A stretch of DNA of 17,702 nt. Source: Gemmatimonadota bacterium (GTDB taxonomy: Bacteria > Latescibacterota > UBA2968 > UBA8231). Shown here piece after piece: positions 1,652-16,579 of this stretch; the stretch's first letter is position 1; every line of letters begins with the position of its first letter. The notes under the pieces are model-generated. The model saw only the letters and a list, made by a program, of their open reading frames with translations, ran no database searches and was not told the DNA's origin. Position numbers and translations under genes: made by a program. The stretch covers positions 1 through 17,702 of the forward strand of contig JAYPJE010000074.1 in assembly GCA_038128265.1 (NCBI GenBank). Reading direction: 5' to 3'.

Positions 1652-1860
1652 TCACTACTGGTGCTGTGGGGGCGCGATATGGCGCGGGGCGACGTCGCAG
1701 TGAGCGCCGTGCTGAGGATCTATATCGCGTGGGTGCGCTGCTCAAAGAGCGCAAGCTGGCGCGCGCCTGTGGGGAGGCCTATAGCCGCTATCAGCGGCGC
1801 GTGCCGATGCTGCTGCCCGGGAAGTCGGCGGGGCGACTGTGGCGGGCCGTTCGGGCTTAG
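1652..1860 (+). pseudogene. Truncated, frameshifted C-terminal remnant of an isoprenylcysteine carboxylmethyltransferase (ICMT/PEMT/MddA-nurim-like) family gene
   Basis: One frame reads SLLVLWGRDMARGDVAVSAVLRIYIA to about 1729; the adjacent frame continues VGALLKERKLARACGEAYSRYQRRVPMLLPG to TAG at 1860. Joined, this matches the family C-terminal consensus Y-I-x-V-G-x-x-L-E-E-R-K-L-x3-(F)-G-E-x-Y-x-x-Y-x-x-x-V-P-x-L-L-P. The upstream RHP motif and N-terminus are absent. Confidence 0.72.
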
Positions 1861-2081
1861 CGTTCCAGCGATTCGAGCAGTTCGTCAAGCGTCCACAGGC
1901 GCTCGGACTGGTTGACGAGCAGGTCGATAATGCGCGGATGGGCGCGCACGGTGTAGGCATCGATAAATGCGAAGTCCGGTCGCACGCTGCCGTCTTCGTT
2001 TTCGGCGACCATGCCGGGATCTTCAATTACAGTTATTTCGTCGGCCTTTCCCATCGCCTCCATATGACGGTACTGTGGCAT
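1857..2081 (-). CDS. Small acidic hypothetical protein (74 aa)
   Basis: A strong AAAGGAG RBS 7 nt before ATG at 2081 (MPQYRHMEAMGKADEITVIEDPG...LWTLDELLESLER) favours this start over the GTG at 2174. Composition is protein-like; no family recognised. Confidence 0.7.
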   Translation of the reverse strand: MPQYRHMEAMGKADEITVIEDPGMVAENEDGSVRPDFAFIDAYTVRAHPRIIDLLVNQSERLWTLDELLESLER

Positions 2082-2158
2082 TTTGACACTCCTTTGAGCC
2101 AATACGCGTTGTGATTGTGTCGTGGTAGCCTCGGGTGGGCGCCACGCCCATAACACAA

Positions 2159-2173
2159 TCAATATTCGTGCCA
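2159..2173 (-). promoter_or_regulatory. Candidate sigma54 (RpoN) -24/-12 promoter
   Basis: Minus strand reads TGGCACGAATATTGA versus consensus TGGCACG-N4-TTGC: perfect -24 box, correct spacing, one mismatch in the -12 box; 78 nt upstream of the small ORF start. Confidence 0.55.
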
Positions 2174-2223
2174 CCGCTGCGCATAGAGGCGAATTTTTCT
2201 CAGAAAACCCTACCGGGGTCAGC

Positions 2224-3624
2224 TCAATAAGGCCAGATGCGCGGCCGGGGACGCTCGCTCTGCAGCTGGTGCACTAAGAGCTGATGACGCAGCTGGGCCA
2301 ATAGGGCCGCCTGCGCGCTATCGCTGCTCAGATCGCGGTAGGCCTGTGGGTCTTCGCGCAGGTCGTAGAGCTGTTCGCCTCCATCGGCTTCCAGCACATA
2401 GCGATAGTCGCTGGTGCGCAGCGTTTTCCAGCCGTCCATTTCCGTCAATGCACCCGGCCGGCCGCTCCACTTTTCGCCGCACAGGGCCGGGTGCAGCGAT
2501 TGGCCCTGGAGGTCCCCCGGTACCGGTATGCCGGCGCATTCGAGCAGCGTTGGCAGCACGTCGACCCCTTCCACTAGGCCTCGCTCCGTGCGGCCGGGGT
2601 GTTCGACATGGCCGGGCCAGCGGACAATAAGTGGGACACGGGTGACGCAGTCGTGACCCGGATAGCCCTTGCCATAGCGCAGGTGTTCGCCGAGCCATTC
2701 GCCGTGGTCGGAGGTAAAGACCACCACGGTGTCGTCGCGCAGGCCCAGTCGGTCGAGGTGCTCGAGAATGCGTCCCACGTGGTGGTCGACCTCGCTGACC
2801 ATGGCGTAGTAGCCCTGATGAGCGCGGCGCAGTTCGTCTTCGCCAAATTGGTCGGAGGCCCGGTTCGCTTCGACCTCGGGCGGGTACGACGGGATGGATA
2901 GGCGCTGTGGATCGTAGCGCTCGATAAATTCCTGGGGCGCGACCCAGGGTGAGTGCGGTGAGTAAAAGCCGGCCACGCACAGAAAAGGCTGCTGGCGGTG
3001 CTGTTCGATAAATTGCATCGTCTGGTCGGCGACAAAGGTGGTGTGCGTGTATCGGCTATCGCCGCGAAAGGGCAGCGCGTCGAGCGGGAAGCGCTCGGCC
3101 GGATGGGCGATGCCGTCGCGCACGCCCAGCTGGCGCTGCCACACGGCGGCGGCCGGCGGTAGGCCGAGGCTGATGTGGTCGAGCTGCTGCGGGTCTTGGC
3201 GCTGTACCCAGGCGCGGTAGGCGTCGGCATAGGGACCCGGTTCGTCGGAAATCTCGAGATGGTCAAAGCCGTAGGGTGGATGGATAGCGCGGTGGTCGCG
3301 GTTGGCGTGCGGCAAAAAGTGCAGCTTGCCGATATTGGCGCTGGTATAGCCATAGTTGCGCAGGTAGTGCGGCAAAATGGGAATGTCTTCGGATACCGGT
3401 ACACCCATATGCGTCACGCCGAGTGCAGAAGGGTAGCGGCCGCTGAGAAAAGACAGGCGCGACGGCATGCAGACGGGGTTTTGCACAAAGTAGTGGTCGA
3501 AGTTAATGCCCTCGCCGACCAGGCGATCGAGATGGGGCGTCTGTATATCTGTATTGCCGTTGGCGCCGAGGGCGTCGTGGCGCTGTTGGTCGGTGTAGAG
3601 CAGCAGGATATTGGGTCTGCGCAT
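2224..3624 (-). CDS. Formylglycine-dependent (S1) sulfatase, choline-sulfatase/arylsulfatase-like
   Basis: 466 aa. RPNILLLYTDQQR, CMPSRLSFLSGRYP (CxPxR), GKLH, SDHGEWLGEH and EQLYDLREDP motifs. AGAGAGG RBS. No signal peptide. Confidence 0.93.
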   Translation of the reverse strand: MRRPNILLLYTDQQRHDALGANGNTDIQTPHLDRLVGEGINFDHYFVQNPVCMPSRLSFLSGRYPSALGVTHMGVPVSEDIPILPHYLRNYGYTSANIGKLHFLPHANRDHRAIHPPYGFDHLEISDEPGPYADAYRAWVQRQDPQQLDHISLGLPPAAAVWQRQLGVRDGIAHPAERFPLDALPFRGDSRYTHTTFVADQTMQFIEQHRQQPFLCVAGFYSPHSPWVAPQEFIERYDPQRLSIPSYPPEVEANRASDQFGEDELRRAHQGYYAMVSEVDHHVGRILEHLDRLGLRDDTVVVFTSDHGEWLGEHLRYGKGYPGHDCVTRVPLIVRWPGHVEHPGRTERGLVEGVDVLPTLLECAGIPVPGDLQGQSLHPALCGEKWSGRPGALTEMDGWKTLRTSDYRYVLEADGGEQLYDLREDPQAYRDLSSDSAQAALLAQLRHQLLVHQLQSERPRPRIWPY

Positions 3625-3641
3625 TGCGGCTGTGCCTCTCT

Positions 3642-5924
3642 TTACGGGCGAGTGTCGCCGACTACCTCTAAGTCAAAGCCTTGAATATCGACGCCGCCCT
3701 GACCGTTCTGCACGCGCAGCGTGATGGTGTGCAGCCCCCGGTGCCGGTCTTCGGGCTGGAGGGTCATGCAGCCGCTCTGCTCGTCCAACTGGACAAAGGC
3801 GGGGCCCTCGTCGAGCAGGAAGCGCAGCACGTCAAAATCGCGAATGGCCGATTGGTAGCGGTGGGGCCCGTCGCTTATGCAGCGCAGATCGCCCTCTCCG
3901 CACAGGCTCTGCACGGAATAGCGGGTTGTATCGCCGGCGCGCGCACGGAGCGGCGGCTTCGAGTAGATAAACGGGCGCGGCGCCGCGGCTAGGTCCGACG
4001 GGCCGCTCGGCGTGCCGTCGGCGTCCAGAGCGACAACGCGGTAGTAGCTGGCGTTGGCCAGCCCGGCCTGTGGTCCGACGATCTGCAGGTGGGTATCGGT
4101 GGTTTCTGCCACGCAGTTGGCTGGGCGTTCCTGCAGGCCGGTCTCTCCTCCGCAAAACACCTCGTGGCGTTCGTCGCGGGCGCTAAAGCCGCGCTCGTCG
4201 CTGGCGTAGACGGCGTAGCGCACGGGGGCATTGCCCCGCGGATTGGCGCGCCAGTGCAGGTTCATCATGCGCGCTGGCCAGTCTGCGCGCACTTCGACGT
4301 CGAGCGGCACGCCGGGAGCGGAGGCCACAAACGAAGCCGGTCGGCTCCACGGCCCCCACAGCCCGTCCGCACTGCGCGCCCGCACGCGCCAGTAGTACGG
4401 GCAATCCGGGTTGAGCAGGCCCATTTCGGGCGGCGACCACTGGTTCTGTCCGGCAAAGGGCGTATTGGAGATGAGCTTTTCAAATACGGGCGAGAGCACG
4501 CAGCGCATATCGGCTCGATCGCCCAATTCGAAGTGGTAGTCGGCCGCATCGGCCACGGGCTGCCAGCGGAAGGTGGGCTGGGTGCCCAGCACCGTGTCGC
4601 CGTCGATAGGTCCGAGCAGCTCGGGCGCGCTGGGCGGTATCAGATCGTCGCGCTCCTGCCAGCGGTGCGTCAGAACGACAGTGCGCTCGGTGCTGTCGTC
4701 TTCGTAGAGCAGTTCGTTGTCGCCCACGTGCAGGGCCGGCAGGGACAGCGGTGCCATTTGCAGGTCCAATTCGATGGCGATGTCCTGCAGGTTTGCACTG
4801 CGCCCGTTCAGGCGCAGATAGAGTTCGTAGGTGGCCGGTCCGTCGCCGGGCAGCAGCGGGTCGAGCTGTCCGGCGTCGTCAATGGGCAGCCATTGGCTGC
4901 CGTCGCGCGACAGGGCACAGTCAACGGGGACCGCGCTGCGGTAGGTCAGGCAGCCTCCGACAATGACGTAGGGCGTTTGCAAGCGATAGACTAGCTGCAC
5001 GGGTTGCTGGGAGTCGATGGTCTCCAGGCCTTCATCGCTGCTGCGTAGGTTATCGGCCCCTTCACACCAGCGGTCGAAGCTCGAGTCGAGGCGCGGCACA
5101 AAGCGCCAGGTGCCGTTGCACAGGCGCGGCGGGCGGTTGCCGAAGCCGTGGTACTTGCCGCGGTCCTGCCACTGCCAGACCAGCGCTTCGCCGGGCCGCA
5201 GGACGCAGTCCATGCGGTGGTCGCCGACCAGCGGGCGTCCGCCGCTGCGCGGTCCGTCGTGTACGAAGAGCGCCGCCGCGCTCTCGTCGCGCTGGCGATT
5301 TTCGCCGCTCAGTATGCCGTAGGCGTGGCCGCGCTTGACCAGGTCGTGATCGCGCGCCAGGTCTTCTTCGCCGGCGATGGTCTCGTTGTCGCGCAGCAGA
5401 TAGAGCAGGTGCTCGTCGCTGTCGAGCAGGTGAAATGCGCCGTCAAAAAACACCTCCGTCGTGCAGTGGCCGTGCGGCACGCCGCGGCGCACCGGCAGGC
5501 CGGCCTCTTGCCACAGATTAGAAACCGTATAGGCCTCGTCCCAGCACAGCGTATAGCCGTAGACGTTGAGCATTTTGACGGTGTCTTTGACTTCGTCATC
5601 GGCCGTGGTGCTGTGGTAGCGATGTCGCCGCGCAAACTCCCAGAGGGTGCGCGCCTTTTCCGCATTGGACATTGTATCGTCGACCAGACCGTCGACGATT
5701 TCGCGCAGCGAATGCCAGCGGCGCTGGCCGTCGACGTGCACGCGCGGTCGGACGACGGGTTCGTCGCCGATGTTTTCCATCGATAGTTCCAGGTTGTTTT
5801 CCCAGTGCTGTTGGTAGTTGCCATAGCCTATTGGATCGCGCGTATTGGTGCCGTCTGCCGTCCCGCCCACGTGAATGGAATAGGCGTGTTGGCTGCTCTG
5901 TGGAGATTCGCTGTGTTTGTGCAT
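3642..5924 (-). CDS. 760-aa multidomain protein: transglutaminase-like (Cys-His-Asp) domain plus fibronectin-III/Ig-like domains
   Basis: AEKARTLWEF...YGYTLC(127)WDEA...AGLPVRR...GH(153)CTTEVFFDGAFHLLD(168) fits the transglutaminase-like core. Fn3-like signatures PTFRWQPV...YHFEL...YYWRVRARSADGLWGPWS and YYRVVALDADGTPSGPS. Ig-like end ITLRVQNGQGGVDIQGFDLEV. ATG directly abuts the upstream TAA. Confidence 0.75.
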   Translation of the reverse strand: MHKHSESPQSSQHAYSIHVGGTADGTNTRDPIGYGNYQQHWENNLELSMENIGDEPVVRPRVHVDGQRRWHSLREIVDGLVDDTMSNAEKARTLWEFARRHRYHSTTADDEVKDTVKMLNVYGYTLCWDEAYTVSNLWQEAGLPVRRGVPHGHCTTEVFFDGAFHLLDSDEHLLYLLRDNETIAGEEDLARDHDLVKRGHAYGILSGENRQRDESAAALFVHDGPRSGGRPLVGDHRMDCVLRPGEALVWQWQDRGKYHGFGNRPPRLCNGTWRFVPRLDSSFDRWCEGADNLRSSDEGLETIDSQQPVQLVYRLQTPYVIVGGCLTYRSAVPVDCALSRDGSQWLPIDDAGQLDPLLPGDGPATYELYLRLNGRSANLQDIAIELDLQMAPLSLPALHVGDNELLYEDDSTERTVVLTHRWQERDDLIPPSAPELLGPIDGDTVLGTQPTFRWQPVADAADYHFELGDRADMRCVLSPVFEKLISNTPFAGQNQWSPPEMGLLNPDCPYYWRVRARSADGLWGPWSRPASFVASAPGVPLDVEVRADWPARMMNLHWRANPRGNAPVRYAVYASDERGFSARDERHEVFCGGETGLQERPANCVAETTDTHLQIVGPQAGLANASYYRVVALDADGTPSGPSDLAAAPRPFIYSKPPLRARAGDTTRYSVQSLCGEGDLRCISDGPHRYQSAIRDFDVLRFLLDEGPAFVQLDEQSGCMTLQPEDRHRGLHTITLRVQNGQGGVDIQGFDLEVVGDTRP

Positions 5925-6818
5925 TTAGCCTTTTGCCGCGTGCTGGGTGATAAAGGGATGTAGAATTGAGGCCATTTCTTCGGCGCATTCAATGTGGGGC
6001 GCGTGGCCGCAGTGATCAAATAGGTGGGTCTGGGCATCGGGTATGTCTTCGGCAAAGCGCAGGGCGTTCAGCGGGTTGATAATGCGATCCTCGCGGCCCC
6101 AGAACACCAGCGTGGGCACGGTGACTTCGCCCAGGCGATGCGCCAATTCGTCAATGTCGGGGGGGACGATATTGCGCGCCGATAGCTGGTAGGCGTAAAA
6201 GGTGTCGATCCGCTGCAGCGCGGCCAGCGTATCGGCGACGAGCACGGGGGGCACGGCGCTGAGGTCGTGGAAACAGCGGGCAACCGAGCGCTGTGCCCCT
6301 CGCGCTAGTAGGCCCGTTTTCTTACACAGCGCATGCACTAGAGGTTGTTGGAGCGCGCTGCCTAGCCAGCCGCCCATTTCTCGAATATATCCGGGCAACG
6401 GCTGGGGATAGCCGGCAGCGGCTACCAGCACGAGGGCGCGCGTGCGCCGCCGCACTTCGGGATAGTCTAGGTAGAGCCGCAGAGCGATACCGCCGCCCAG
6501 CGACGAGCCGCCCAGCACAAGGGACTCGAGGCCCATCGCCTCGACAAAGGCACACAGGTATTCTGCTTGCGTATCGGGCGAGTAGCGGCGTTCGGGAGGC
6601 AGGTGTGTCAGCGGCGGTCTGTCGCTGTGGCCGTGTCCGAGCAGGTCGGGTGCCACGCAGCGCACGCCGGACAGACGTGCCGCTAGCGGGGACCAGGTGC
6701 GCTTGTGATCGAATATGCCGTGCAACAGCAAGAGCGCTTGCGACGCAGCACCGCTGCTGTCGCAGTAGGCCAAGCGCACCCCGTCGCCGACTTCAGCGTA
6801 GTGGGTTGCGTCAAACAA
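5925..6818 (-). CDS. Alpha/beta fold hydrolase (start uncertain, probable 5' frameshift)
   Basis: LLLLHGIF oxyanion loop, APDLLGHGHS, GSSLGG nucleophile elbow, WGREDRII acid, CGHAPHIE catalytic His. In-frame TTG at 6818; the natural ATG at 6876 is out of frame (see findings). The track start at 6968 overlaps the aldolase and is unlikely. Confidence 0.88.
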   Translation of the reverse strand: MFDATHYAEVGDGVRLAYCDSSGAASQALLLLHGIFDHKRTWSPLAARLSGVRCVAPDLLGHGHSDRPPLTHLPPERRYSPDTQAEYLCAFVEAMGLESLVLGGSSLGGGIALRLYLDYPEVRRRTRALVLVAAAGYPQPLPGYIREMGGWLGSALQQPLVHALCKKTGLLARGAQRSVARCFHDLSAVPPVLVADTLAALQRIDTFYAYQLSARNIVPPDIDELAHRLGEVTVPTLVFWGREDRIINPLNALRFAEDIPDAQTHLFDHCGHAPHIECAEEMASILHPFITQHAAKG

Positions 6819-6883
6819 GGCCGAGCACTGGGTATTGGTCTTCGGCGGCGGCGGCGTCCCATACGGGCTGGGGCATCGCCTAT

Positions 6884-7666
6884 TTACCGCGGAATCGAGT
6901 GCACGTCGTCGAGCACGTCTTTGAATTTGGCGTAGAGCAGGTTGAAATCGCCGCCGAGCGAGATCCACTGCAGGCCCCGATCCAGCCAGTGCGCAACGGC
7001 CTGGCGCTCGTAGCCCATAGAGATGCCAATGGTCTTATCCGTTTGCAACGTTTTGGCGATAACGCGCTCGGTGGCGGCTATGACCTGCGGATGGGTCACC
7101 TGGCCGGACAGGCCCATCGAGCCGGCCAGATCGTTAAAGCCCACGCACAGCCCGTCGAGTCCATCGACTGCCAGAATGTCGTCAATGGCCTCGACGGCGT
7201 GGATATGCTCGATCTGCACGATGACCATAATCTGCTCGTCGGCATCGACGAGGTATTCGGGGTAGGGCTGGCCGCCAAAGCGGCGACCGCGGCGCGGGCC
7301 GAAGCCGCGGATGCCCGCGGGCGGATACTTGCAGGCGGCAACGACGCGCTCAACGTCGGCAACCGACTGGACCTGCGGTGCGATAATGGCGGCTGGATGT
7401 AGCTCGAGTACGGGCTTAATCAGCACCGGATCGGCGGCCGGCACGCGGATAAAGGGGGCGGCGCCGGTGCCGCGCACCGCCATCACGTGGCCGAGGGCCG
7501 TGCTCAGGTCGATGGGGCAGTGCTCCATGTCGATCCAGGTAAAATCGTATCCGGCATCGCCGACCAATTCGCTGATGGCTGGATCGCTAAAGCTGATTGT
7601 GGTGCCGACGCAGAGTTCGCCGCGTGCAATCTTGGCCTTAAAGCGGTCGACGTGGTTGATGGTCAT
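6884..7666 (-). CDS. HpcH/HpaI-family class II pyruvate aldolase (GarL/RhmA-like)
   Basis: GYDFTWIDMEH, catalytic Arg in PFIRVP, KYPPAGIRGFG, metal ligands in VQIEH and GFNDL. AGGAG RBS before ATG at 7666 (MTINHVDRF); 260 aa. Confidence 0.93.
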   Translation of the reverse strand: MTINHVDRFKAKIARGELCVGTTISFSDPAISELVGDAGYDFTWIDMEHCPIDLSTALGHVMAVRGTGAAPFIRVPAADPVLIKPVLELHPAAIIAPQVQSVADVERVVAACKYPPAGIRGFGPRRGRRFGGQPYPEYLVDADEQIMVIVQIEHIHAVEAIDDILAVDGLDGLCVGFNDLAGSMGLSGQVTHPQVIAATERVIAKTLQTDKTIGISMGYERQAVAHWLDRGLQWISLGGDFNLLYAKFKDVLDDVHSIPR

Positions 7667-7702
7667 GGAGACTCCTGTGTACGCCAATCGCGGGCTGTGT
7701 GA

Positions 7703-10006
7703 TTAATAGGCGACAGAGACGAGGCGGTGCTCGACGCGCTCGAAGGCATCGCCCTGTGCGCGCAGGCTCAGTATGTATGCGCCGGGTGGCACGAGGCGTC
7801 CCTGCTCGTCGCGCCCGTCCCAATGCAGGGCGACGCGTCCAGCCGATATAGAGGCGTCGGCCGCGGTGACTACGTGGCGGCCAGCCAGGTCGTAGATGGC
7901 CAGTTCGACCGGGCGCGGGTCGATTATTTTTAGCAGGTCGAAATCGACCGTGACGGCGTCGTTTATGCCGTCGCCGTTGGGCGTTATGACGGCCGTGGAG
8001 AGAGCGAGGTTGTCGAGCAGACGTCCGTTGGACGGCAGGGCGACAAAGGTCACGCCGCTGTCAATGCGCTCGTCGGCATCGCCTGGGTCGACGGGCTGGC
8101 GCACCTGCGATCCCAGCGCGCTGTTAAACAGGAAGGCGTCAAAGCGCGTTTGGTTGAGAAAGAGCGTGCTTTGGATATCGATTTCGACCAGCGCCGAGCG
8201 GCGTATGGGCGCAGAGAGCGTGAGCAGCACGCCCCGGTCGACGGGTTCGGCGTCTACGTCGACCGGATTGCCGTCGACGCGCAGCTCTTTAAAGTGGAGT
8301 CCGGCGCTGCTGGAAAGCTGTATTTGATCAAAGCCGCGGCTGGCAGCTACCATGTTGGAGCGCAGGTAGTAGGTGAAGTCGCTTGCCTCGCCGGGCAGAG
8401 CCTGGCGCGGAAAAATCTCGGCGCGGGTCGACTGGGCGAGCGGCTGGTTGTACTCGATGCGGATGTCGTCGAGCACGGCGCTGACCTGCGGATCCTCGGA
8501 GGCGAAGCGCAGCTCCAACTGCACGTAGCGACGCGGTGCCGGCGAGAGGAAGAGCTGGCCAGAGTCGGCATAGGGTCGGCTCCAGGTGCTCCAATCGGGA
8601 CCGGCCGTGCGCAGCGTGTCGATTGGACCGCGAAAAGATGGTATGAGCTTGTCGTAGCGCGTCTGCGTCACTTCTTTGCCGTTTTTATCGTAGAAGACGT
8701 ATTGCTCCTGCAGCTCATTGCCCGTGCGGCTGCGCAGCTCCATGCGCGCGCCGCTCGGCATCTCGGCGCTCCAGTGTAGCGCGGTGATGTGTTGGACGGA
8801 GCCAAAGTCAAAAATGGGCGATAGGCCAACTGCTTCGGCCGGATGGCCGTAGCCAAAGACCTGCCATTCGGCCGTGGTGCCAATGCGGCCATTAAAGGCC
8901 TGAATGCCGTCGGACATGGGGAAGAACAGGCGGACGTGGCGCACCTTGCGCAGCGGAAAGTGCTCCTCAAAGTGGACGATGCCCTGCAGGTTGCGCGGGT
9001 CCGAAGGGAGCTCGCCCATGAGCTCCCAGCGCAGCGAGCCGTCTACCGAGCGCGAGCCATCGGAGGTGTAGAACTGGTACCACAGATAGTTAAACGTGCC
9101 GCCGCGGTGGTAGCCGGCGCCGCGGCCCGGGGCAATGCCGGAACCGTCGCCGAGCATGCGCACGGTATCGACCCAGAATAGCGCGCCCAGGTCCAGTTCG
9201 AACTGCCCGAACTGCTGTTCGGGCTGGGCCCCGGAGCCGCCGCGGTGGGCCGTTCCCCAATAGGTCGTGATATCGCCGTCGACCAGCGTATTGCTAATGC
9301 CGATGCTCTCAACCAGTTCGCGGCCAAAGGTCGATCCTACTTCGGATATGATGGTCACGCCGCCGCCGCGCTCCCAGATGCCCAGCGATATATTGTCTCC
9401 GATGCTCTCAACGATTACTTCGCCCAGGCGGATGTCCAGATCGGCTTGGGTGCGGTCGGCCTCAATTCGAATGTATTGGAGGGGATTCTTTTCAAAGTCG
9501 ATGGCGATGGTGCGCTCTGTGTTAAAGCTGTAACTGGTGCTCTTGTTGTAGCGCAGCGAGCCGGGGATAATGGAGTTGGCGTTGTTGAAAAACGGTTCGC
9601 CGTCGGATGTAAGAATGCGAAAAAACTCGAGCGGTGCCCCGTCCTGGGCAAAGCGCAGCTCGATGCTGCGCGCAGACACGACTCGGCCCAGATCGATCTC
9701 GATCCACCACGTGTCGGTTGATTTCGTAGGATCGGGAGACCAATAGGTCGACTCGTCGCCGTCGATGAGGTTGTTGGCCTGTTCGGCGTGCGAGCCGACG
9801 TCGCGAATGCCGCCGCCAAACTGCGCGGCGTTGGCCACGGCGTTGATGTCGCGGCGGACAAAGCCCGGGCGCAGGCTGCCGCCGTCGATTGAAATGGCGT
9901 CGCCTGGCAGCTGCCAGCGGGCCCAGTCGCTCGGCGTGGTGATGAGCAGTTCGTCGGCAACCAAGGGGCTGCAGACCAGCAGCAGGATGCAAAAAGCGCG
10001 TTTCAT
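7703..10006 (-). CDS. Secreted 767-aa protein with two discoidin (F5/8 type C)-like modules and a C-terminal FlgD-Ig / gliding-motility-CTD-like domain
   Basis: GGAG RBS before ATG at 10006 and a Sec-type signal peptide MKRAFCILLLVCSPLVA. NLIDGDESTYW...WIEIDLG and TLVDGDITTYW...FELDLG repeats. C-terminal ITPNGDGIND...IYDLAGRHV...WDGRDEQGRLVPPGAYI. Confidence 0.85.
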   Translation of the reverse strand: MKRAFCILLLVCSPLVADELLITTPSDWARWQLPGDAISIDGGSLRPGFVRRDINAVANAAQFGGGIRDVGSHAEQANNLIDGDESTYWSPDPTKSTDTWWIEIDLGRVVSARSIELRFAQDGAPLEFFRILTSDGEPFFNNANSIIPGSLRYNKSTSYSFNTERTIAIDFEKNPLQYIRIEADRTQADLDIRLGEVIVESIGDNISLGIWERGGGVTIISEVGSTFGRELVESIGISNTLVDGDITTYWGTAHRGGSGAQPEQQFGQFELDLGALFWVDTVRMLGDGSGIAPGRGAGYHRGGTFNYLWYQFYTSDGSRSVDGSLRWELMGELPSDPRNLQGIVHFEEHFPLRKVRHVRLFFPMSDGIQAFNGRIGTTAEWQVFGYGHPAEAVGLSPIFDFGSVQHITALHWSAEMPSGARMELRSRTGNELQEQYVFYDKNGKEVTQTRYDKLIPSFRGPIDTLRTAGPDWSTWSRPYADSGQLFLSPAPRRYVQLELRFASEDPQVSAVLDDIRIEYNQPLAQSTRAEIFPRQALPGEASDFTYYLRSNMVAASRGFDQIQLSSSAGLHFKELRVDGNPVDVDAEPVDRGVLLTLSAPIRRSALVEIDIQSTLFLNQTRFDAFLFNSALGSQVRQPVDPGDADERIDSGVTFVALPSNGRLLDNLALSTAVITPNGDGINDAVTVDFDLLKIIDPRPVELAIYDLAGRHVVTAADASISAGRVALHWDGRDEQGRLVPPGAYILSLRAQGDAFERVEHRLVSVAY

Positions 10007-10076
10007 GTTGAATCTCCGGTGCATCGGCCCGTGCGGATGTGCTCCCATGAAGCCCATGGGGGTAGCCCTATGGAGA

Positions 10077-10105
10077 ATTATATCGTTGAGGGTGTGGGTG
10101 GGCAA
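10077..10105 (-). promoter_or_regulatory. Sigma70-type promoter for the secreted protein gene and possibly downstream genes
   Basis: Minus strand TTGCCC (10105-10100), 17-nt spacer, perfect TATAAT (10082-10077), about 70 nt upstream of ATG 10006. Confidence 0.7.
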
Positions 10106-10125
10106 GGGTGGGGCAGGTTCGGTGC

Positions 10126-10165
10126 CCCGCGAGGATTGAGACCCGTATGGTGCGATCCTCGCGGG
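10126..10165 (-). terminator. Strong stem-loop downstream of the Zn-dehydrogenase gene (terminator or mRNA-stabilising hairpin)
   Basis: CCCGCGAGGAT (10126-10136) pairs perfectly with ATCCTCGCGGG (10155-10165), 21 nt after the stop at 10187. No U-tract follows, so it is not a canonical intrinsic terminator. Confidence 0.5.
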
Positions 10166-10186
10166 ACATTAGGGATAGATCGCTGC

Positions 10187-11314
10187 CTAACGACCGGGTT
10201 CGATGACGACCTTCATTGACCCTTCGCTGCCGGTGATGTCGATGCCCTCTGCAATGGAAGACAGCGGCAGGCGATGGGTTATAAACTGGTCGAGCGGCGC
10301 CTTGGTCGCCTTGAGAAAGGACAGCGCCGTTTTAAACTGCATGGCCGGATAGGCCCACATGCCGCGGATATCGATGTCTTTAAAGCAGACGATGTGCGGG
10401 TGGATTTCGACGGCGCCCGGATCGGTGAAGTGGCCGACCTCGACGACGATGCCGCCGCGCCGCACCAGGTCGAGCGATTCTTTAAAGGCGACCGGCACGC
10501 CGGCTGTTTCGATAACGATGTCGGGGCCGACGCCGTCGCATAGTTCGGCCAGATGGGCCTGGCGCTCTTCGAGCGCGGTCTGACCTACGTCGATAACCGT
10601 ATGCGCGCCCATGGCCTGGGCCAGCGCTAGGCGCGATGCACTCAGGTCGGCGGCAATAATTCGATCGGTGCCGACGTGTGCCAGCGCGGCAATGACCAGC
10701 TGGCCTATGGGGCCGGCGCCCATGACCAGCACGGATTTATCCATGCCGAGCCCCTCGCCGATATGGGGTATGCCGGGCCCGAGGGCGCGCTCGACGGCGC
10801 GCGTGGCCACGGCGGCCGGCTCGGTGAGCACGGCGTACTCGGAGGGCAGTTCGTCGGGGATTTTAAAGACCCACGAGCGGTTCGTCATATGCATATACTG
10901 TGAGAAGCCGCCGCGCGGCGCCGGCGCCATGTCGGCCGATACAAAGCCGTAGACAAAGCGGCTGGAGCAGAGGGTGGGCCGCTGCGGCATGTGCAGGCAG
11001 TAGTGGCAGCGGCCGCAGGCCGTCGAAGAGGGCGTCGTCGTAATGCGATCGCCCTCCTTGACCGGTCCGCCGACGATGGCCATGTGGTCGGCGGCTTTGG
11101 AACCGAGTTCGGCGATGGTGCCGACCAATTCGTGTCCGGGCACGACGGGAAACTGTAGGCCCATATGGCCGGCGTACATGTGCTTGTCGCTGCCGCAGAT
11201 ACCGGTGCGCTCAACGGACAGGAGCAGCTCGTCTTGGCCAATGGAAGGGCGTGCAAATTCGCGCACTTCGATCGTGCCCGGCTCGAGCATCACGGCAGAT
11301 TGAATGGTGGCCAT
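10187..11314 (-). CDS. Zinc-dependent medium-chain alcohol/polyol dehydrogenase
   Basis: GICGSDKH and PGHE catalytic Zn ligands, CGRCHYC...C structural Zn, TEPAAVA, GAGPIG Rossmann motif with downstream Asp (ADLS; NAD-type). AAGGA RBS before ATG 11314 (MATIQSAVM); 375 aa. Confidence 0.93.
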   Translation of the reverse strand: MATIQSAVMLEPGTIEVREFARPSIGQDELLLSVERTGICGSDKHMYAGHMGLQFPVVPGHELVGTIAELGSKAADHMAIVGGPVKEGDRITTTPSSTACGRCHYCLHMPQRPTLCSSRFVYGFVSADMAPAPRGGFSQYMHMTNRSWVFKIPDELPSEYAVLTEPAAVATRAVERALGPGIPHIGEGLGMDKSVLVMGAGPIGQLVIAALAHVGTDRIIAADLSASRLALAQAMGAHTVIDVGQTALEERQAHLAELCDGVGPDIVIETAGVPVAFKESLDLVRRGGIVVEVGHFTDPGAVEIHPHIVCFKDIDIRGMWAYPAMQFKTALSFLKATKAPLDQFITHRLPLSSIAEGIDITGSEGSMKVVIEPGR

Positions 11315-11357
11315 AGTCGATTCCTTGCCTGAGAAGTGTGGAGGCGCTGTGAAGGCG

Positions 11358-12467
11358 CTAGCGGACCTTGCCGCGCGCAGCGATCGGCCATACCTCGACG
11401 AGCTGGCCATCGCGCATGGCGTAGAGGTAGTCGTGCAAATTGACGGTGGTGCAGCCGTGGCCCGGAATAAACTCGAGCACGTCGCCCACCTCTATATCGG
11501 TGCAGGCGCCGCCGTCGAGCGTGCGCAGGCGGCCGTGCTCTTCAGACAGGGCGTGGCACTCCAAATCAGATCGGTCTTTGACGAGGGGGAAGCCGTGCTC
11601 GGGCGTCAAGGATTTGAGGCCGGCATCCGTAATGACCTGGTGCGGCGTTGGGCGGCTGCCCACGGTCGTCAGCACGGTGAGGGCGTTTTGGAAGCCGAGT
11701 CCGAGGCGTCCGTAGGCCGCGTCCATCAGCGCGTACGATCCGGCCTGCACCTCGGTAATGCCGTCAAAAGTCGTGCTGACGTAATAGTCACCGGTGGCCG
11801 AAGACGAGCAGATGCCGACGTCGATGCCGGCTGCTTCAATGTCGGCGCGCGCATCGACTAAGCGCTGCAGGCACTCGCGCGCCTTCCCTTCGCGCTCGGC
11901 ATCGTCCTCTAGATCGACGACGTGGCCTTCGTAGCCCATGATGCCAGCAAAGCGCAGGTGCGCCGCGTCGACTGTGCGTTGGGCCAGTGCGACGGCGTTT
12001 TGGCCGGGCGTTGCTCCGCAGCGGTTGTGGCCGATATTGACTTCGACGAGCACGCGCGGGGCGACGCCGTGGGCCGCAGCCGCTTCGCTGAGGGCGTCGA
12101 GGTTGGTCGGATGGTCGACGGCGACCATGATATCGCAGCGCGCAGCCAGACGCATCAGGCGCTCGATCTTTTTCGTCCCAACGACTTCGTTGGCAATCAG
12201 GATATCTTGGATGCCGGCGTCGGCCATGACCTCGGCCTCGCCGAGCTTGGCACAGGTAATGCCCAGGGCGCCGGCCTCGAGCTGGCGCTGGGCGATGGCC
12301 GGGGTTTTGTGCGACTTGCTGTGCGGTCGCAGGTGCTTGCCCGTGGCGCGAAAGTGGGCAGCCATTTTCTCAATGTTGTAATCGAGGGCATCGAGATCGA
12401 CGAGCAGCACGGGCGTGTCGATCTCGTCGCGATGCATGCCTATATAATCACCTGCGGGCAGCTGCAT
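11358..12467 (-). CDS. Fold-type III PLP enzyme, DSD1 / D-threonine aldolase / D-serine dehydratase-like family
   Basis: 369 aa. DTPVLLVDLD, LRPHSKSHK (PLP lysine), CAKLGEAEVM, GIMGYEGH, EVQAGSY, DAGLKSL, LSEEHG and IPGHGCTTVNL (His/Cys metal ligands). GGAG RBS. Confidence 0.93.
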   Translation of the reverse strand: MQLPAGDYIGMHRDEIDTPVLLVDLDALDYNIEKMAAHFRATGKHLRPHSKSHKTPAIAQRQLEAGALGITCAKLGEAEVMADAGIQDILIANEVVGTKKIERLMRLAARCDIMVAVDHPTNLDALSEAAAAHGVAPRVLVEVNIGHNRCGATPGQNAVALAQRTVDAAHLRFAGIMGYEGHVVDLEDDAEREGKARECLQRLVDARADIEAAGIDVGICSSSATGDYYVSTTFDGITEVQAGSYALMDAAYGRLGLGFQNALTVLTTVGSRPTPHQVITDAGLKSLTPEHGFPLVKDRSDLECHALSEEHGRLRTLDGGACTDIEVGDVLEFIPGHGCTTVNLHDYLYAMRDGQLVEVWPIAARGKVR

Positions 12468-12503
12468 GGGTTAAGCTCCGTTGCGGAAAGAAGATTGGTG
12501 TGT

Positions 12504-13763
12504 TCAGAAGTGCAGCGGCAGATCGCCGTTGGCGTCAAATGCCATCTCGCTGGCTTCCTCGACGATGGACAGGTCCTCGCGCGCTTCAACTTCAGCGCGA
12601 TAGGCTTCCGAGACGAGCAATTCACCCAAGTCCAGCGTATTGTGAATGCGCAGGATCTTCTCCTCGCCGGGTTCGCGCAGGCCGACGGTTTGCAGCGCCT
12701 TCTCAATGCAGATTTGATCGGTGTCAAAGTAGAGCGGAATGTGCGCGCCGGAGGGGTGGTTGCCCGTCATGCAGTTGATGTAGGTGATTTCGCGATCCAT
12801 CTCGTCGACGGCGCGCCGGTGCGCGTATTCGGCCGTGCCGATGCCCGAGGCGTTGCCGTGCGTTTCCGGCGTCAGGCCGCGCACGAGGATGCGCGTGACC
12901 TTGGGGTACTCCTTTTCGGCGGCGTGGTTGTCGTGGAACTTGCGCCCGACGACGTTGGTGTCCATGCCCGCGCCGGAAATATTCTTGCCGATCTCGTCGA
13001 CGATGAGCAGGTCGACGTGGTCAAAGGGCAGGCGCGGCATCCACTTTTTGGCCAGCACGAGCAGCTCTTTTTCGCGCTCGACAAATTCTTCGGGTGCGAC
13101 GCCTTTGAGCAGCGCCGTCTTGTCGTACTGGTTTTCGACGATGCCCAGGCCCAGCAGCACGCCGCACTTTTCGATGACCTGCTGGCCCACCGAGCGGATA
13201 ATGCGGTCAAAGCTGTAGTGGACGATGGCCTGATGGTAGAGCGCCGCACCTTTATGCTTTCCTAAGCCTATGAGCATCATTTTGTGCAGGCCGCTCTCTA
13301 TTTCACCAACGAAGTCGGTGTGCGGCTTAATGCGCCCGACCACGGCGACGTGGTCCGCCTCAAAGGCGTACTTGTCGAAAAAGACCGGCACGCCGTCTTC
13401 TGTTTGACCGACCTGCACCGTTTCCATACTCGCTTTGATCGGCGCGCCAACGTATTCCTCGGTGACGCCATAGCCCTCGATAATTTCGCGCTGCGCCTCG
13501 GCTACGCCGCCGCCGTGGCTGCCCATGGCCGGGACGAGAAAGGGCGCTAGGCCGAGGGCCTTGAGTTCCTCGACCAGCGACTTGGTGATCAGGGCAATGT
13601 TATTGATGCCGCGGCTGCCGACGGAGACGGCCACCGACTGACCCGGCTCGACGCGCGATGCCAGGTTGAGGCGGGCGATTTCTTCTTTGACAGCGGCGGG
13701 GATATCCTCCACGGTCGGTGCGTCGAAGTGCTGGCGTATGCGCAGCATGCGGGGAAAGGACAT
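12504..13763 (-). CDS. LarA-superfamily (lactate racemase domain) nickel-pincer-dependent racemase/epimerase homologue
   Basis: 419 aa. VAVSVGSRGI, PAMGSHGG, GRIKPHTDF, ESGLHKMMLIGLG and GKNISGAGMD motifs typical of a divergent LarA-like group. AGGAG RBS overlaps the upstream stop. Substrate cannot be inferred. Confidence 0.82.
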   Translation of the reverse strand: MSFPRMLRIRQHFDAPTVEDIPAAVKEEIARLNLASRVEPGQSVAVSVGSRGINNIALITKSLVEELKALGLAPFLVPAMGSHGGGVAEAQREIIEGYGVTEEYVGAPIKASMETVQVGQTEDGVPVFFDKYAFEADHVAVVGRIKPHTDFVGEIESGLHKMMLIGLGKHKGAALYHQAIVHYSFDRIIRSVGQQVIEKCGVLLGLGIVENQYDKTALLKGVAPEEFVEREKELLVLAKKWMPRLPFDHVDLLIVDEIGKNISGAGMDTNVVGRKFHDNHAAEKEYPKVTRILVRGLTPETHGNASGIGTAEYAHRRAVDEMDREITYINCMTGNHPSGAHIPLYFDTDQICIEKALQTVGLREPGEEKILRIHNTLDLGELLVSEAYRAEVEAREDLSIVEEASEMAFDANGDLPLHF

Positions 13764-13773
13764 GGCGGCTCTC

Positions 13774-14925
13774 CTATATGGCTTCGCTAAAAATGGCTTC
13801 GATATCGGTTTGCTGGGTCTTGCGCGGATTGACTGCGACGTTGCCGCTGGTCATGGCGGCGGCGCTCATTTTTTTAATGCCAGTTCGCTTGACGCCGTAG
13901 GCGCTCAGCTTAGCCGGAATGCGCAGGTCGCCGTTGAGTTCCCATACGCAGTCAATAGCAGCCTGCGCTGCTTCGCGTTGCTCCATGCCGTACGTATCAA
14001 CGCCCAGCGCAGCGGCGATGGTAGCGAATTTTTCCAGTCTACTGGGTAGGTTGAACTCCATGACATAGGGCAGTAAAATGGCGTTGGCTAGACCGTGGTG
14101 AATGCCATACTGTGCTCCTGCTGGGTGCGACATAGCGTGCACGTTGCCCAGACGCGTCTGTGAGAAGGCGATTCCCGCCAGCATGGAAGCGACGAGCATG
14201 TTCTGCGTAGCGTCGACTTCGTGGTCGTTGGCACAGGCTAGGCGCAGATTGGCGCCGATGAGGCGAATCGCTTGCAGGGCCAGCCCCTCGGATACGGGGT
14301 TGGCGAGTAGGTTGGTATAGCTCTCAATGGCGTGCGTGAGTGCATCCATACCCGTTGGGCCGCCGACCGAGGCTGGCAGCGCCGTGCACAGCTCGGCATC
14401 TAGAATGCCGACAAGTGGAGCGATTTTCCAGCTTATTACGGGATCTTTGTTTTGCGTCTTGGGATTGGTGAGCACGGCAAAGGGTGTCACCTCACTGCCC
14501 GTGCCATAGGTCGTGGCGAGGCAGTAGAGCGGCGGAATAGGATCGGTTACCTTGTTGGATCCCAAGTAGTCTTCTATGCGGCCGCCGTGTTGAGCGACTA
14601 CGCCGATCATCTTGGCCACATCCATCGGCGAGCCGCCGCCTATGGCGACGATGGCACTGCACTTGGCCTTGTGATAGAGGCGTGCACCGGCGTGCACGCA
14701 GCGCGCCGGCGGGTTGGGCAGTGCGCCGGCGTAGAGCTCGTATTCTATGGATGCATCGTCGAGGATGCTCAATACCTGCCCGACGACGCCGGCCTCCACT
14801 AATCCCCGGTCAGTGACGATAAGCGCTTTTTCTCCCACGATAAAATCGGCCAGTTGTGCCCGTGAGCCGGGGCCGTGCACGACCTGGGTTGGGCTGCGAA
14901 AATCAAAATGGTTCTGCAGTGCCAT
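13774..14925 (-). CDS. Iron-containing (family III) alcohol dehydrogenase
   Basis: LIVTD, GGGSPMDVAK, TTYGTGSEVT, GMDALTHAIE, VHAMSH and HHGLANAILLP motifs. ATG at 14925 (MALQNHFDF); the track start at 14988 lies inside the promoter. 383 aa. Confidence 0.94.
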   Translation of the reverse strand: MALQNHFDFRSPTQVVHGPGSRAQLADFIVGEKALIVTDRGLVEAGVVGQVLSILDDASIEYELYAGALPNPPARCVHAGARLYHKAKCSAIVAIGGGSPMDVAKMIGVVAQHGGRIEDYLGSNKVTDPIPPLYCLATTYGTGSEVTPFAVLTNPKTQNKDPVISWKIAPLVGILDAELCTALPASVGGPTGMDALTHAIESYTNLLANPVSEGLALQAIRLIGANLRLACANDHEVDATQNMLVASMLAGIAFSQTRLGNVHAMSHPAGAQYGIHHGLANAILLPYVMEFNLPSRLEKFATIAAALGVDTYGMEQREAAQAAIDCVWELNGDLRIPAKLSAYGVKRTGIKKMSAAAMTSGNVAVNPRKTQQTDIEAIFSEAI

Positions 14926-14965
14926 ATCGTTTCTCTGAATAAAAAAATGCGAGGGCGAGAGGGAA

Positions 14966-14995
14966 AACTTAGCGATGCTGTTGGCCAAGTGTCAA
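14966..14995 (-). promoter_or_regulatory. Sigma70-type promoter heading the Fe-ADH / LarA-like / PLP enzyme / Zn-ADH operon
   Basis: Perfect TTGACA (14995-14990), 18-nt spacer containing the palindrome TTGGCCAA (14981-14988), TAAGTT (14971-14966). Confidence 0.65.
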
Positions 14996-15040
14996 GAAAG
15001 CGCCTTCAGTCTTCTAGCCTAGGGAAAGGACAAGTGCCGC

Positions 15041-16579
15041 TCAGGTCTCGCCGTAATAGGCGCATATGCGTTCGACGAGTGCCGGCACGCTGCTGTGCTC
15101 GGGCTGGACGTGCACCTGCAGTCCGTGCGCGTGGACCGCAGCGGCTGTGGTCGGGCCGATGCAGGCTATGGCCGCGTGCTCTAGCAGCAGCTGGGCGCCG
15201 TCGGTTCCGAGCGCTTCGTAGAGATGGTCGACGCTGGACGGGCTGGCAAAGACGACCATATCAATTGCTCTATCTCCGAGGGCCGAACGCGTGTCAATGT
15301 TGGCCGGCGGGCGATTTTGGTAGGCCGTCACGCGCTCGACGTGGGCTCCGCGCGCCTGCAGCGCATCGACCAATTCGGTGCGGCCAATGGCCGAAGTTGG
15401 GAAGAGCACATGCGCGCCCTGCATATCCAGCGCGTTAAAGGCCGTTGCTAGGCCCTGCTGCGACTGCTCATCGGGCACCAGGTCGGCGCGCAGGCCGCAC
15501 CCGCCTAGTGCCTCGGCGGTTTTGCTGCCAACCGCCGCGATGCGCAGGTGCGCCAGTGCGCGCGCATCGAGCTGATGGGCGCGCAGGCGATCAAAGAAAA
15601 AGCGCACGCCGTTGGCGCTGGTGAAGAGCAGCCAGTTCCACCGTGATAGATTGTTCAGCGCGGCATCGAGTGGGTCGAGGTTGTCGGCGGCAGCGATCTC
15701 CAGTAAAGGGAGCATGCGCACCTCGGCACCGGCCCATTCCAAGCCTGCGACCAGCTCGGCGGACTGCTCTTTGCTGCGCGTGACGAGCACGGTGCGACCG
15801 AAGAGCGCCTTGCGCTCGCGCCAGGCCAGCTGCGGGCGCAGCGCGACTACGTCGCCGACTACGATGAGCGAGGGCGAGGTGATGCCGGTCTGTTCGGCCA
15901 GAGCGGGCAGATCGGCCAGCGTGCCTTCGACGGTGCGCTGGCGCGCCCAGGTGCCCCATTCGACGACGGCAGCCGGCGTGGCAGCTGGTCGCCCGTGGGT
16001 CACTAGGACACGGCAAAGTTCGGGCAGGGTGCGTGCCGCCATAAAAATGACGAGCGTGGCATCGAGCCGGGCCAGCGCCGGCCAGTCGACCTGGCCACTG
16101 GGTGCTTCGGGATCTTCGTTGCCGGTGACCAGCACGGCGGCCGAAGCCAGGCCGCGATGGGTGAGGGGAATGCCGGCGTAGGCGGTAGCGCCGGCAGCGG
16201 CGGAGATGCCGGGAACGATTTCGAAGTCGACACCGGCCTGTCGCAGGTGCAGTGCTTCTTCGCCGCCGCGGCCAAATACAAAGGGGTCGCCGCCCTTCAA
16301 ACGCACCACGACTTGGCCGTTCTGTGCGCGTTCGGATAGCTGAGTGTTAATTTCTTCCTGCGAGACGCTGGTGCGGCCACCGCGCTTGCCGACGTAGACG
16401 TGTTCGCAGTGCGGACCGGTCAGGTCGAGCAGGCGGCGATCGAGCAATTCGTCGTAAAAGACGACGTCGGCGCGGCGCAGCACCTCGGCCCCTTTGCAGG
16501 TCAGTAGGCCGGGATCGCCCGGTCCGGCGCCGACGATGTAGACGGTGCCGGCCGTGGCGGGAGATGATGCGTCGCTCAT
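15041..16579 (-). CDS. cobA: Fused uroporphyrinogen-III C-methyltransferase / uroporphyrinogen-III synthase (CobA-HemD)
   Basis: VYIVGAGPGDPGLLT, VVRLKGGDPFVFGRGGEE and GIPLTHRG (SUMT), then LFGRTVLVTR, FTSANGV, FASPSSV and ACIGPTT (HemD). ATGA overlap with hemC. Confidence 0.96.
   Translation of the reverse strand: MSDASSPATAGTVYIVGAGPGDPGLLTCKGAEVLRRADVVFYDELLDRRLLDLTGPHCEHVYVGKRGGRTSVSQEEINTQLSERAQNGQVVVRLKGGDPFVFGRGGEEALHLRQAGVDFEIVPGISAAAGATAYAGIPLTHRGLASAAVLVTGNEDPEAPSGQVDWPALARLDATLVIFMAARTLPELCRVLVTHGRPAATPAAVVEWGTWARQRTVEGTLADLPALAEQTGITSPSLIVVGDVVALRPQLAWRERKALFGRTVLVTRSKEQSAELVAGLEWAGAEVRMLPLLEIAAADNLDPLDAALNNLSRWNWLLFTSANGVRFFFDRLRAHQLDARALAHLRIAAVGSKTAEALGGCGLRADLVPDEQSQQGLATAFNALDMQGAHVLFPTSAIGRTELVDALQARGAHVERVTAYQNRPPANIDTRSALGDRAIDMVVFASPSSVDHLYEALGTDGAQLLLEHAAIACIGPTTAAAVHAHGLQVHVQPEHSSVPALVERICAYYGET

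Follow-up and report, generated by a model that had tools for sequence, protein, structure and literature searches.

The locus and its transcription signals

The window analysed here is the whole of contig JAYPJE010000074.1 (C74 in our numbering; 17,702 nucleotides). It comes from a 4.29-Mb, 84% complete genome of the phylum Latescibacterota (GCA_038128265.1). Five intact open reading frames (ORFs) lie on its minus strand, and an original prediction had joined them into one new catabolic pathway for an unusual sugar acid. The first encodes an iron-containing alcohol dehydrogenase (Fe-ADH, 383 aa; 13774..14925). It is followed by a LarA homologue (LarAH, 419 aa; 12504..13763), a putative isomerase dependent on the nickel-pincer nucleotide (NPN). 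Next come a DSD1-family fold-type III enzyme dependent on pyridoxal phosphate (PLP) (DSD enzyme, 369 aa; 11358..12467) and a Zn-dependent medium-chain dehydrogenase (Zn-DH, 375 aa; 10187..11314). The fifth, an HpcH/HpaI class II pyruvate aldolase (HpcH, 260 aa; 6884..7666), lies further along the same strand. The first four genes are separated by 10, 36 and 43 nt. ORF coordinates and matches to Pfam and NCBIfam bear out both this tight spacing and the proposed family names. On the same strand, hemC and then cobA/hemD are found upstream of Fe-ADH. The third-position GC content of the four genes (0.68-0.80) is not distinct from that of the flanking genes. The Pfam scan of 13 window proteins showed neither a transporter nor a regulator, as had been noted before.

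A sigma-70-type promoter candidate, TTGACA-N18-TAAGTT, precedes Fe-ADH (14966..14995, minus strand). It consists of TTGACA at 14995-14990 and, 18 nt on, TAAGTT at 14971-14966, which matches TATAAT at 3/6 positions. This candidate is absent from the list given by our consensus scan. TTGACA recurs at most 160 nt upstream of Fe-ADH in 43/66 scorable related loci, which are kin and not independent. The genome background of this motif is 0.23 sites per kb, counting both strands. At the other end, a 14-bp hairpin without a U tail follows the Zn-DH stop codon (10123..10168, minus strand) and is the likely end of the unit. Its folding energy is -32.1 kcal/mol (z = -4.0), and 0/200 shuffled sequences fold as well. 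Hairpins of other sequence occupy the same place after Zn-DH in the related loci L032, L033 and L070. We considered that the hairpin might be a dispersed repeat and ruled this out, since the genome holds a single copy. The short gaps, the conserved TTGACA and the hairpin make it likely that Fe-ADH, LarAH, DSD and Zn-DH form one predicted transcription unit, with the start and the end originally proposed. A look-up of public RNA runs for 9800-15300 listed none, which says nothing on expression either way. This four-gene operon is probably constitutive.

The LarA homologue

LarAH belongs to group 22 of the LarA homologues, a placement that the original prediction had called for. It scores 522.4 bits against NCBIfam model NF052515 (cut-off 400). 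Its AF2 model (pLDDT 87.9) was compared with known structures by Foldseek. All 16 listed rows among ranks 1-19 are LarA-family proteins (TM 0.47-0.57), 4nar among them. Identity to the solved LarA-family structures is only 13-16%. The sequence search of the PDB returned spurious repeat-protein matches together with weak LarA matches, and the PDB profile search returned none.

Residues R51, H83, H148, K161 and H177 are in register with R75, H108, H174, K184 and H200 of LarA. They are conserved in 148, 148, 150, 149 and 150 of 150 LarAH representatives, respectively. The genome also encodes larB, larC and larE, all above cut-off (contigs C11, C4 and C26). These NPN-binding and catalytic residues, with the lar genes, are consistent with the nickel-pincer enzyme first proposed. 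On the other hand, K298 of LarA has no equivalent. By motif the position is V272, and lysine is not among its six commonest residues, which cover 148/150 rows. K298 is listed among the catalytic residues of LarA, and the group-22 rows of the published Dataset S2 show I, T, V or L there (PMC7583248). We dropped K260 as a counterpart of K298, because the Dataset S2 alignment places V272 at that position. From the alignment, the invariant K260 and the common R274 might substitute for K298. The authors of that study suggest that LarA groups without such residues could perform another hydride reaction (PMC7583248). Group 22 as published there has the same R/H/H/K/H set as LarAH, with T-D at positions 175-176 and likewise no lysine at 298.

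The published tables label group 22 as "Unknown function", and the assay-table rows contain no member of it (PMC7583248). The D-gluconate/D-mannonate 2-epimerases GntE (groups LarAH19, LarAH20 and LarAH15; PMC7583248, PMC11770544) share the LarA fold with LarAH. However, their signature after the catalytic His174 is E-V at 175-176 (PMC11770544), and LarAH has H148-T149-D150. It thus lacks the GntE hexonate 2-epimerase signature. The parts of PMC11770544 covered here do not name a group-22 enzyme.

The neighbours of group-22 genes in other organisms were also compared. Table S1 of PMC7583248 gives a short-chain dehydrogenase/reductase (SDR) in 45%, IlvD/Edd in 30%, larE in 30%, and also TRAP, sugar kinase and uxaC genes. 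Fe-ADH, DSD1 and Zn-DH, the partners found here, are absent from that list. We hand-picked three plasmid loci from 115 records. The first has the order uxaC-LarAH-SDR-larEBC near gndA. The second has larBEC and TRAP-LarAH, facing genes for KDPG aldolase and KDGal kinase. In the third, a GH28 gene adjoins LarAH. The Paenibacillus context, uxaC-SDR near gnd, resembles the uronate-to-gluconate route, as with GntE. By analogy with these plasmid loci and the published contexts, it is a fair inference that LarAH would act on an aldonate. The sugar-acid theme of the original prediction is thus in line with the contexts of group-22 genes in other phyla.

Group 22 is widespread. At E <= 1e-30 its profile matches 1,851 clusters formed at 50% identity. 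NF052515 is present in 133/141 genomes of the phylum that are at least 85% complete, often in two copies and also in classes without any of the operon partners. The host genome itself holds a second group-22 gene and a Sar-like LarA at C11:46573-47850 (L240; E 1.6e-132 to Isosphaera LarA). The gene directly before the latter is nucleotidyltransferase-like and presumably GalU-type, by its motif.

The PLP enzyme and the two dehydrogenases

The solved sequences closest to the DSD enzyme are D-threonine aldolases (AxDTA; 4v15, 7dib) and the 3-hydroxy-D-aspartate aldolase BhcC (6qkb), with E-values of 1e-70 to 3e-68. The PLP lysine and the Arg157 and Tyr187 positions of these enzymes are kept. However, the aldolases have a His/Asp metal site and the base His193. 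The DSD enzyme has His337 and Cys339 at the AxDTA His347/Asp349 sites, and Asp185 at the His193 site. It also scores only 306 bits against the BhcC model (cut-off 690). Among the 119 best-listed homologues, out of 1,205 matches, 113 have the cysteine of position 339. At position 185, histidine is not among the six commonest residues, which cover 115/119 of these best-listed homologues. D-serine dehydratase (3anu) likewise has a His/Cys metal site and no His193 (PMC4401734). The same features are common to the D-threo-3-hydroxyaspartate dehydratase (3wqc). Both dehydratases are far from the DSD enzyme in sequence (E 2e-28 for 3anu and 6e-32 for 3wqc).

The DSD enzyme thus has, as sequence features, the PLP lysine (K51), the His/Cys site and the lack of His193 of a DSD1-type dehydratase. 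Since its His/Cys metal site and Asp185 match the D-serine dehydratase pattern, the enzyme more likely deaminates its substrate than cleaves it as an aldolase. This agrees with the deamination step first suggested for it. Judged by its residues, the subfamily combines a sequence resembling the aldolases with an active site of the dehydratase type. A DSD1-like subfamily with GYSD in place of GHGC, and so without the His-x-Cys/Asp site, is also present in families f2, f3 and f4 of the class (L247, L111, L248-L250). The f2 and f4 homologues are about 50% identical and sited elsewhere, and they were not counted as orthologues. In two f2 genomes such a gene adjoins a lactate/malate dehydrogenase gene.

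The best PDB match of Fe-ADH is 1,3-propanediol oxidoreductase (3bfj, E 2.4e-88). GGGS 96-99, D39 and D194/H198/H263/H277 are in register with that enzyme. We take these motifs to serve metal and NAD binding. The fold, metal ligands and NAD motifs are common to Fe-ADH, 3bfj and FucO (1rrm). Nevertheless, Fe-ADH falls under all NCBIfam equivalog cut-offs (lactaldehyde reductase, 333 against 523; sulfoacetaldehyde reductase, 261 against 700). We rejected the idea that it is an NPN enzyme like NphT. NphT is described as an aldo-keto reductase (PMC13524815), and the motifs for NAD and iron are retained in Fe-ADH. Likewise, Zn-DH is closest to PDB 1vj0 and lies below every equivalog cut-off. Its motifs are intact: C40/H61/E62, the structural C100/C103/C106/C116, GAGPIG and D223.

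Co-occurrence and gene order in relatives

Adjacency was scored in 41 genomes (the source genome and 40 relatives). Presence was counted by tblastn in a class set of 106 genomes, made of the source genome and 105 relatives at least 90% complete. The cut for DSD orthologues (E <= 1e-108) was chosen to exclude the GYSD homologues of f2 and f4. Two neighbourhood scans of 80 loci each covered relatives of LarAH and metagenome relatives of Zn-DH. From the LarAH scan, 13 loci titled Acidobacteriota, Opitutales or Desulfarculia were set aside. The 67 loci kept include metagenome-assembled genomes titled Gemmatimonadota, Planctomycetota or uncultured, which we assume to be of the same lineage, and many of these loci are cut short.

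Fe-ADH was matched in 36/41 genomes. In 34 of these 36 it lies at most 1.3 kb from LarAH, and in the other two on a different contig. It is absent between intact flanks in L109, L120 and L214. In one genome the LarAH adjacent to Fe-ADH is split in two (G018:C45:31652-32378), and another copy (70% identity) lies on its contig C132 without partners. DSD orthologues occur in 46/106 class genomes and Zn-DH in 47/106. Of the class genomes, 41 have the two together, 5 only DSD, 6 only Zn-DH and 54 neither; every one of the 48 genomes from families f2 and f4 is in the last group. The two genes lie within 1 kb in 18 of the 41 genomes that have both. The other 23 all belong to genus g14 and have the pair on different contigs or at a long distance. 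Four g14 genomes were inspected, and in these Zn-DH now precedes a SpoIIE-type regulator.

The order after LarAH is also variable. DSD follows directly in 21/62 scorable loci, after insertions in 27/62, and is not within 7.5 kb in 14/62. The inserted genes are unrelated. Across L039-L066 the interval is an insertion hot spot for a D12-class adenine DNA methyltransferase, PhyH, Cas3, an AAA ATPase, a sulfatase and FlgD proteins. Zn-DH follows DSD in 18/42 loci, and all four genes are tight in 8/67. None of the 13 loci with other-phylum titles has an operon partner (0/13). Among the Zn-DH relatives, LarAH and DSD are present in only 2/80 metagenome loci (L152 and L153), both resembling family f3.

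The operon is limited to its lineage; within it, Fe-ADH and the group-22 LarAH are a stable core, and DSD and Zn-DH are optional. Joint gain and loss with kept adjacency, the mark of a dedicated pathway, were not found, and neither, in the scans of 80 loci each, was recurrence in unrelated lineages. The original prediction had named co-occurrence as a check; DSD and Zn-DH are instead lost singly or moved apart, and the combination was not found beyond this lineage.

Such a pattern could come from hitchhiking. In that case functionally unrelated genes would stay adjacent because they share a constitutive promoter and rearrange slowly, with Fe-ADH and LarAH as core and DSD and Zn-DH as passengers. 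In other classes of the phylum, LarAH stands by aroB/ddl-SDR, sucCD or unrelated genes. The 11 stretches from these classes have none of the three partners (11/11, some at contig edges); two of them have an SDR and two have sucCD. A cobA or AIRS gene lies at most 8 kb upstream in 25/50 loci, so a junction that looks unrelated persists too. Zn-DH relatives elsewhere have many different neighbours, and the source genome has two more tight runs of four genes from orphan catabolic families. However, the order Fe-ADH-(SDR)-LarAH-DSD-Zn-DH is kept between families at about 55% identity, and gene order holds down to about 50-55% protein identity (L152; L114, L115). The SDR partner is also the commonest published neighbour of group 22 (Table S1 of PMC7583248). 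We regard hitchhiking as possible but somewhat unlikely.

HpcH and the downstream unit

One gene separates Zn-DH from HpcH. It encodes a 767-aa protein with F5/8 and FlgD-Ig domains (7703..10006, minus strand) and lies outside the operon. Before it, at 10077..10105 on the same strand, we found a second promoter candidate (TTGCCC-17-TATAAT, 10/12 consensus matches), the predicted start of a downstream unit; it has a counterpart in L032 and L033. The original prediction had placed HpcH further on, with the caveat that it may be separately transcribed. Its position is as claimed, and the hairpin and the second promoter-like site would fit the caveat.

HpcH is one of 10 paralogues in the host genome. 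An orthologue occurs in 14/106 class genomes, and it is near the operon on its contig in only four, all of the source genus. Likewise, it is found in 4/67 LarAH loci, all with LarAH at least 94.5% identical. Because the hairpin and second promoter intervene and the linkage is limited to one genus, HpcH is placed outside the operon. It is a bystander, a recent neighbour in a separate unit.

These counts bear directly on the pathway first proposed, in which the four enzymes and HpcH would oxidise, epimerise, deaminate, cleave and reduce one sugar acid in line. The genes share a strand, and the chemistry of each family individually fits sugar acids. In L031 and L034, moreover, DSD is about 80 nt from the 767-aa gene, and read-through to HpcH is possible there. 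Nevertheless, the co-occurrence results largely refute this pathway. HpcH is in another unit, the other genes are lost singly, and the epimerase and the PLP enzyme need different groups at C2. As a whole it appears very improbable.

After HpcH, the downstream unit (window 2224-10105, minus strand) runs on through genes for an alpha/beta hydrolase and for a 760-aa protein, whose only match, to Ig, is weak, to a sulfatase gene. In L036 this unit lacks HpcH and the 760-aa gene. In L032, a second and unrelated Zn-dehydrogenase (3965-4870; 27% identity) has been inserted after the second promoter and ahead of the 767-aa gene. Zn-DH, the hairpin and the second promoter are gone at L031:6033-6116 and L034:10394-10477, and these species may have operon and downstream unit fused. 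In two f4 genomes (L211, L213), another HpcH paralogue (27-29% identity) has arrived independently beside Fe-ADH; in L211, LarAH is duplicated around HpcH and Fe-ADH. Finally, a 105-aa ORF without a Pfam match lies between two sulfatase genes (window 1857-2174, minus strand).

An older gene string and the genome background

Across the class we find the string cobA/hemD - AIRS-family - HAD - Fe-ADH - (KduD-like SDR) - LarAH, so that the Fe-ADH-LarAH junction sits among housekeeping-type genes. After LarAH come DSD and Zn-DH in families f1 and f3, and an ECF ATPase, pyrC and carA in f2 and f4. The 560-aa gene after LarAH in f2 and f4 was considered as an IlvD/Edd dehydratase and rejected, being an ECF ATPase in 8/8 tested. 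In L152, one contig carries everything from HAD through Zn-DH at 48-55% identity, which counts toward a long-lived link. The AIRS-family gene (HypE/ThiL/SelD-like, below cut-offs) and the HAD phosphatase stand before Fe-ADH at L069:5636-6661, L072:5422-6009 and in L210-L223. With the ECF ATPase of f2 and f4, they might be a cofactor-salvage set. Neither the HAD nor the AIRS gene was found in the host genome, which is 84% complete.

The string also allows a convergent route. The four genes, together with the lost KduD-like SDR and HAD, would serve one class of compounds. Isomers of hexonates would be funnelled by C2 epimerisation and by a C5 redox pair of Zn-DH and SDR. DSD would add an entry for amino-sugar acids, and Fe-ADH would remove an aldehyde. 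The pair IdnD/IdnO works in this way on L-idonate in E. coli. All six genes are in the one string of L152. An SDR stands between Fe-ADH and LarAH in L068, L070, L072, L076, L093, L102 and L112, and the SDRs tested score top with KduD/gluconate 5-dehydrogenase models. The loci with all four genes tight, given above, are also in its favour. On the other hand, the host genome, within its present completeness, has no clear SDR orthologue (best 44%) and no HAD or AIRS match. The string contains no aldonate dehydratase, and its members are lost singly. This route seems to us quite improbable.

The genome offers ample background for such clusters. It has 60 matches to the enolase-superfamily C-terminal domain and 3 to IlvD/Edd, besides the 10 HpcH. 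About 70 Gfo/Idh/MocA, 42 sulfatase, 40 PhyH and 37 SDR ORFs add to an extreme expansion of orphan catabolic genes. The 296 ORFs of the seeded catabolic families form 8 tight runs of at least three genes. Three of these are four-gene runs, this operon included, so catabolic clusters of this kind are not rare there.

Interpretation

LarA enzymes take 2-hydroxy acids. For a fold-type III PLP enzyme the substrate must be a 2-amino acid, and its 2-oxo acid product has no stereocentre at C2. Because these groups at C2 differ, LarAH and the PLP enzyme could not act consecutively without a C2 reductase. Only an aldonate dehydratase could let the two converge, and the string has none.

We therefore lean, somewhat better than evenly, towards operon enzymes that act in parallel on sugar-acid-like hydroxy and amino acids, and not as an obligatory chain. 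The operon would be the remnant, in the source genus, of the class-wide string AIRS, HAD, Fe-ADH, KduD-like SDR, LarAH, DSD and Zn-DH. LarAH with its NPN cofactor would invert C2 of an aldonate by hydride transfer. The DSD enzyme would eliminate water from a D-beta-hydroxy amino acid, of the D-serine/D-threonine type or a hexosaminate, giving a 2-oxo acid and ammonia. Zn-DH would oxidise a secondary alcohol in a polyol or aldonate with NAD+, and Fe-ADH would use NADH to reduce a short aldehyde. The resulting compounds would enter the pool handled by the many unlinked dehydratases and aldolases of the genome, HpcH among them.

Several points weigh against this parallel action. Group 22 has no equivalent of K298, so epimerisation is not assured by its residues. 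No assay of any group-22 member was found in the literature, in a search that left subscription papers mostly outside. The class-wide neighbours of Fe-ADH and LarAH (cobA/hemD, AIRS, HAD, ECF ATPase, pyrC and carA) carry no hint of sugar acids; the idea of a shared substrate thus depends on gene neighbourhoods of distant organisms, where identity is about 40%. In addition, the two families with DSD and Zn-DH have both genes in 41 genomes and just one in 11, as a real partnership would also predict.

A bolder proposal would make Fe-ADH and the group-22 LarAH a two-enzyme module that is core to the class, for a pair of hydroxy acid and aldehyde. The reaction of LarAH, with the invariant K260 and the common R274 but no K298, would then be new to the LarA superfamily. 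The hybrid DSD enzyme and Zn-DH would let amino-sugar acids and C5 isomers enter as an option. We consider this unlikely at present.

Significance

No paper describing the combination of Fe-ADH, LarAH, DSD and Zn-DH was found (the same limit on subscription papers applies), as the original prediction had also supposed. Since the genes are lost or moved individually in relatives and HpcH lies outside, this is an operon of known families and probably not one new pathway. As a pathway claim it is weak, and its value is a list of enzymes to test. The DSD subfamily, with its aldolase-like sequence and predicted dehydratase-type site, is a clean assay target. The candidate substrates of LarAH can be narrowed by its link to Fe-ADH and by the gene contexts in Paenibacillus, Marinovum and Haloferax. 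Within the nickel-pincer enzymes group 22 forms a large branch, and its near-universal presence in this uncultured phylum indicates a central rather than a niche role.

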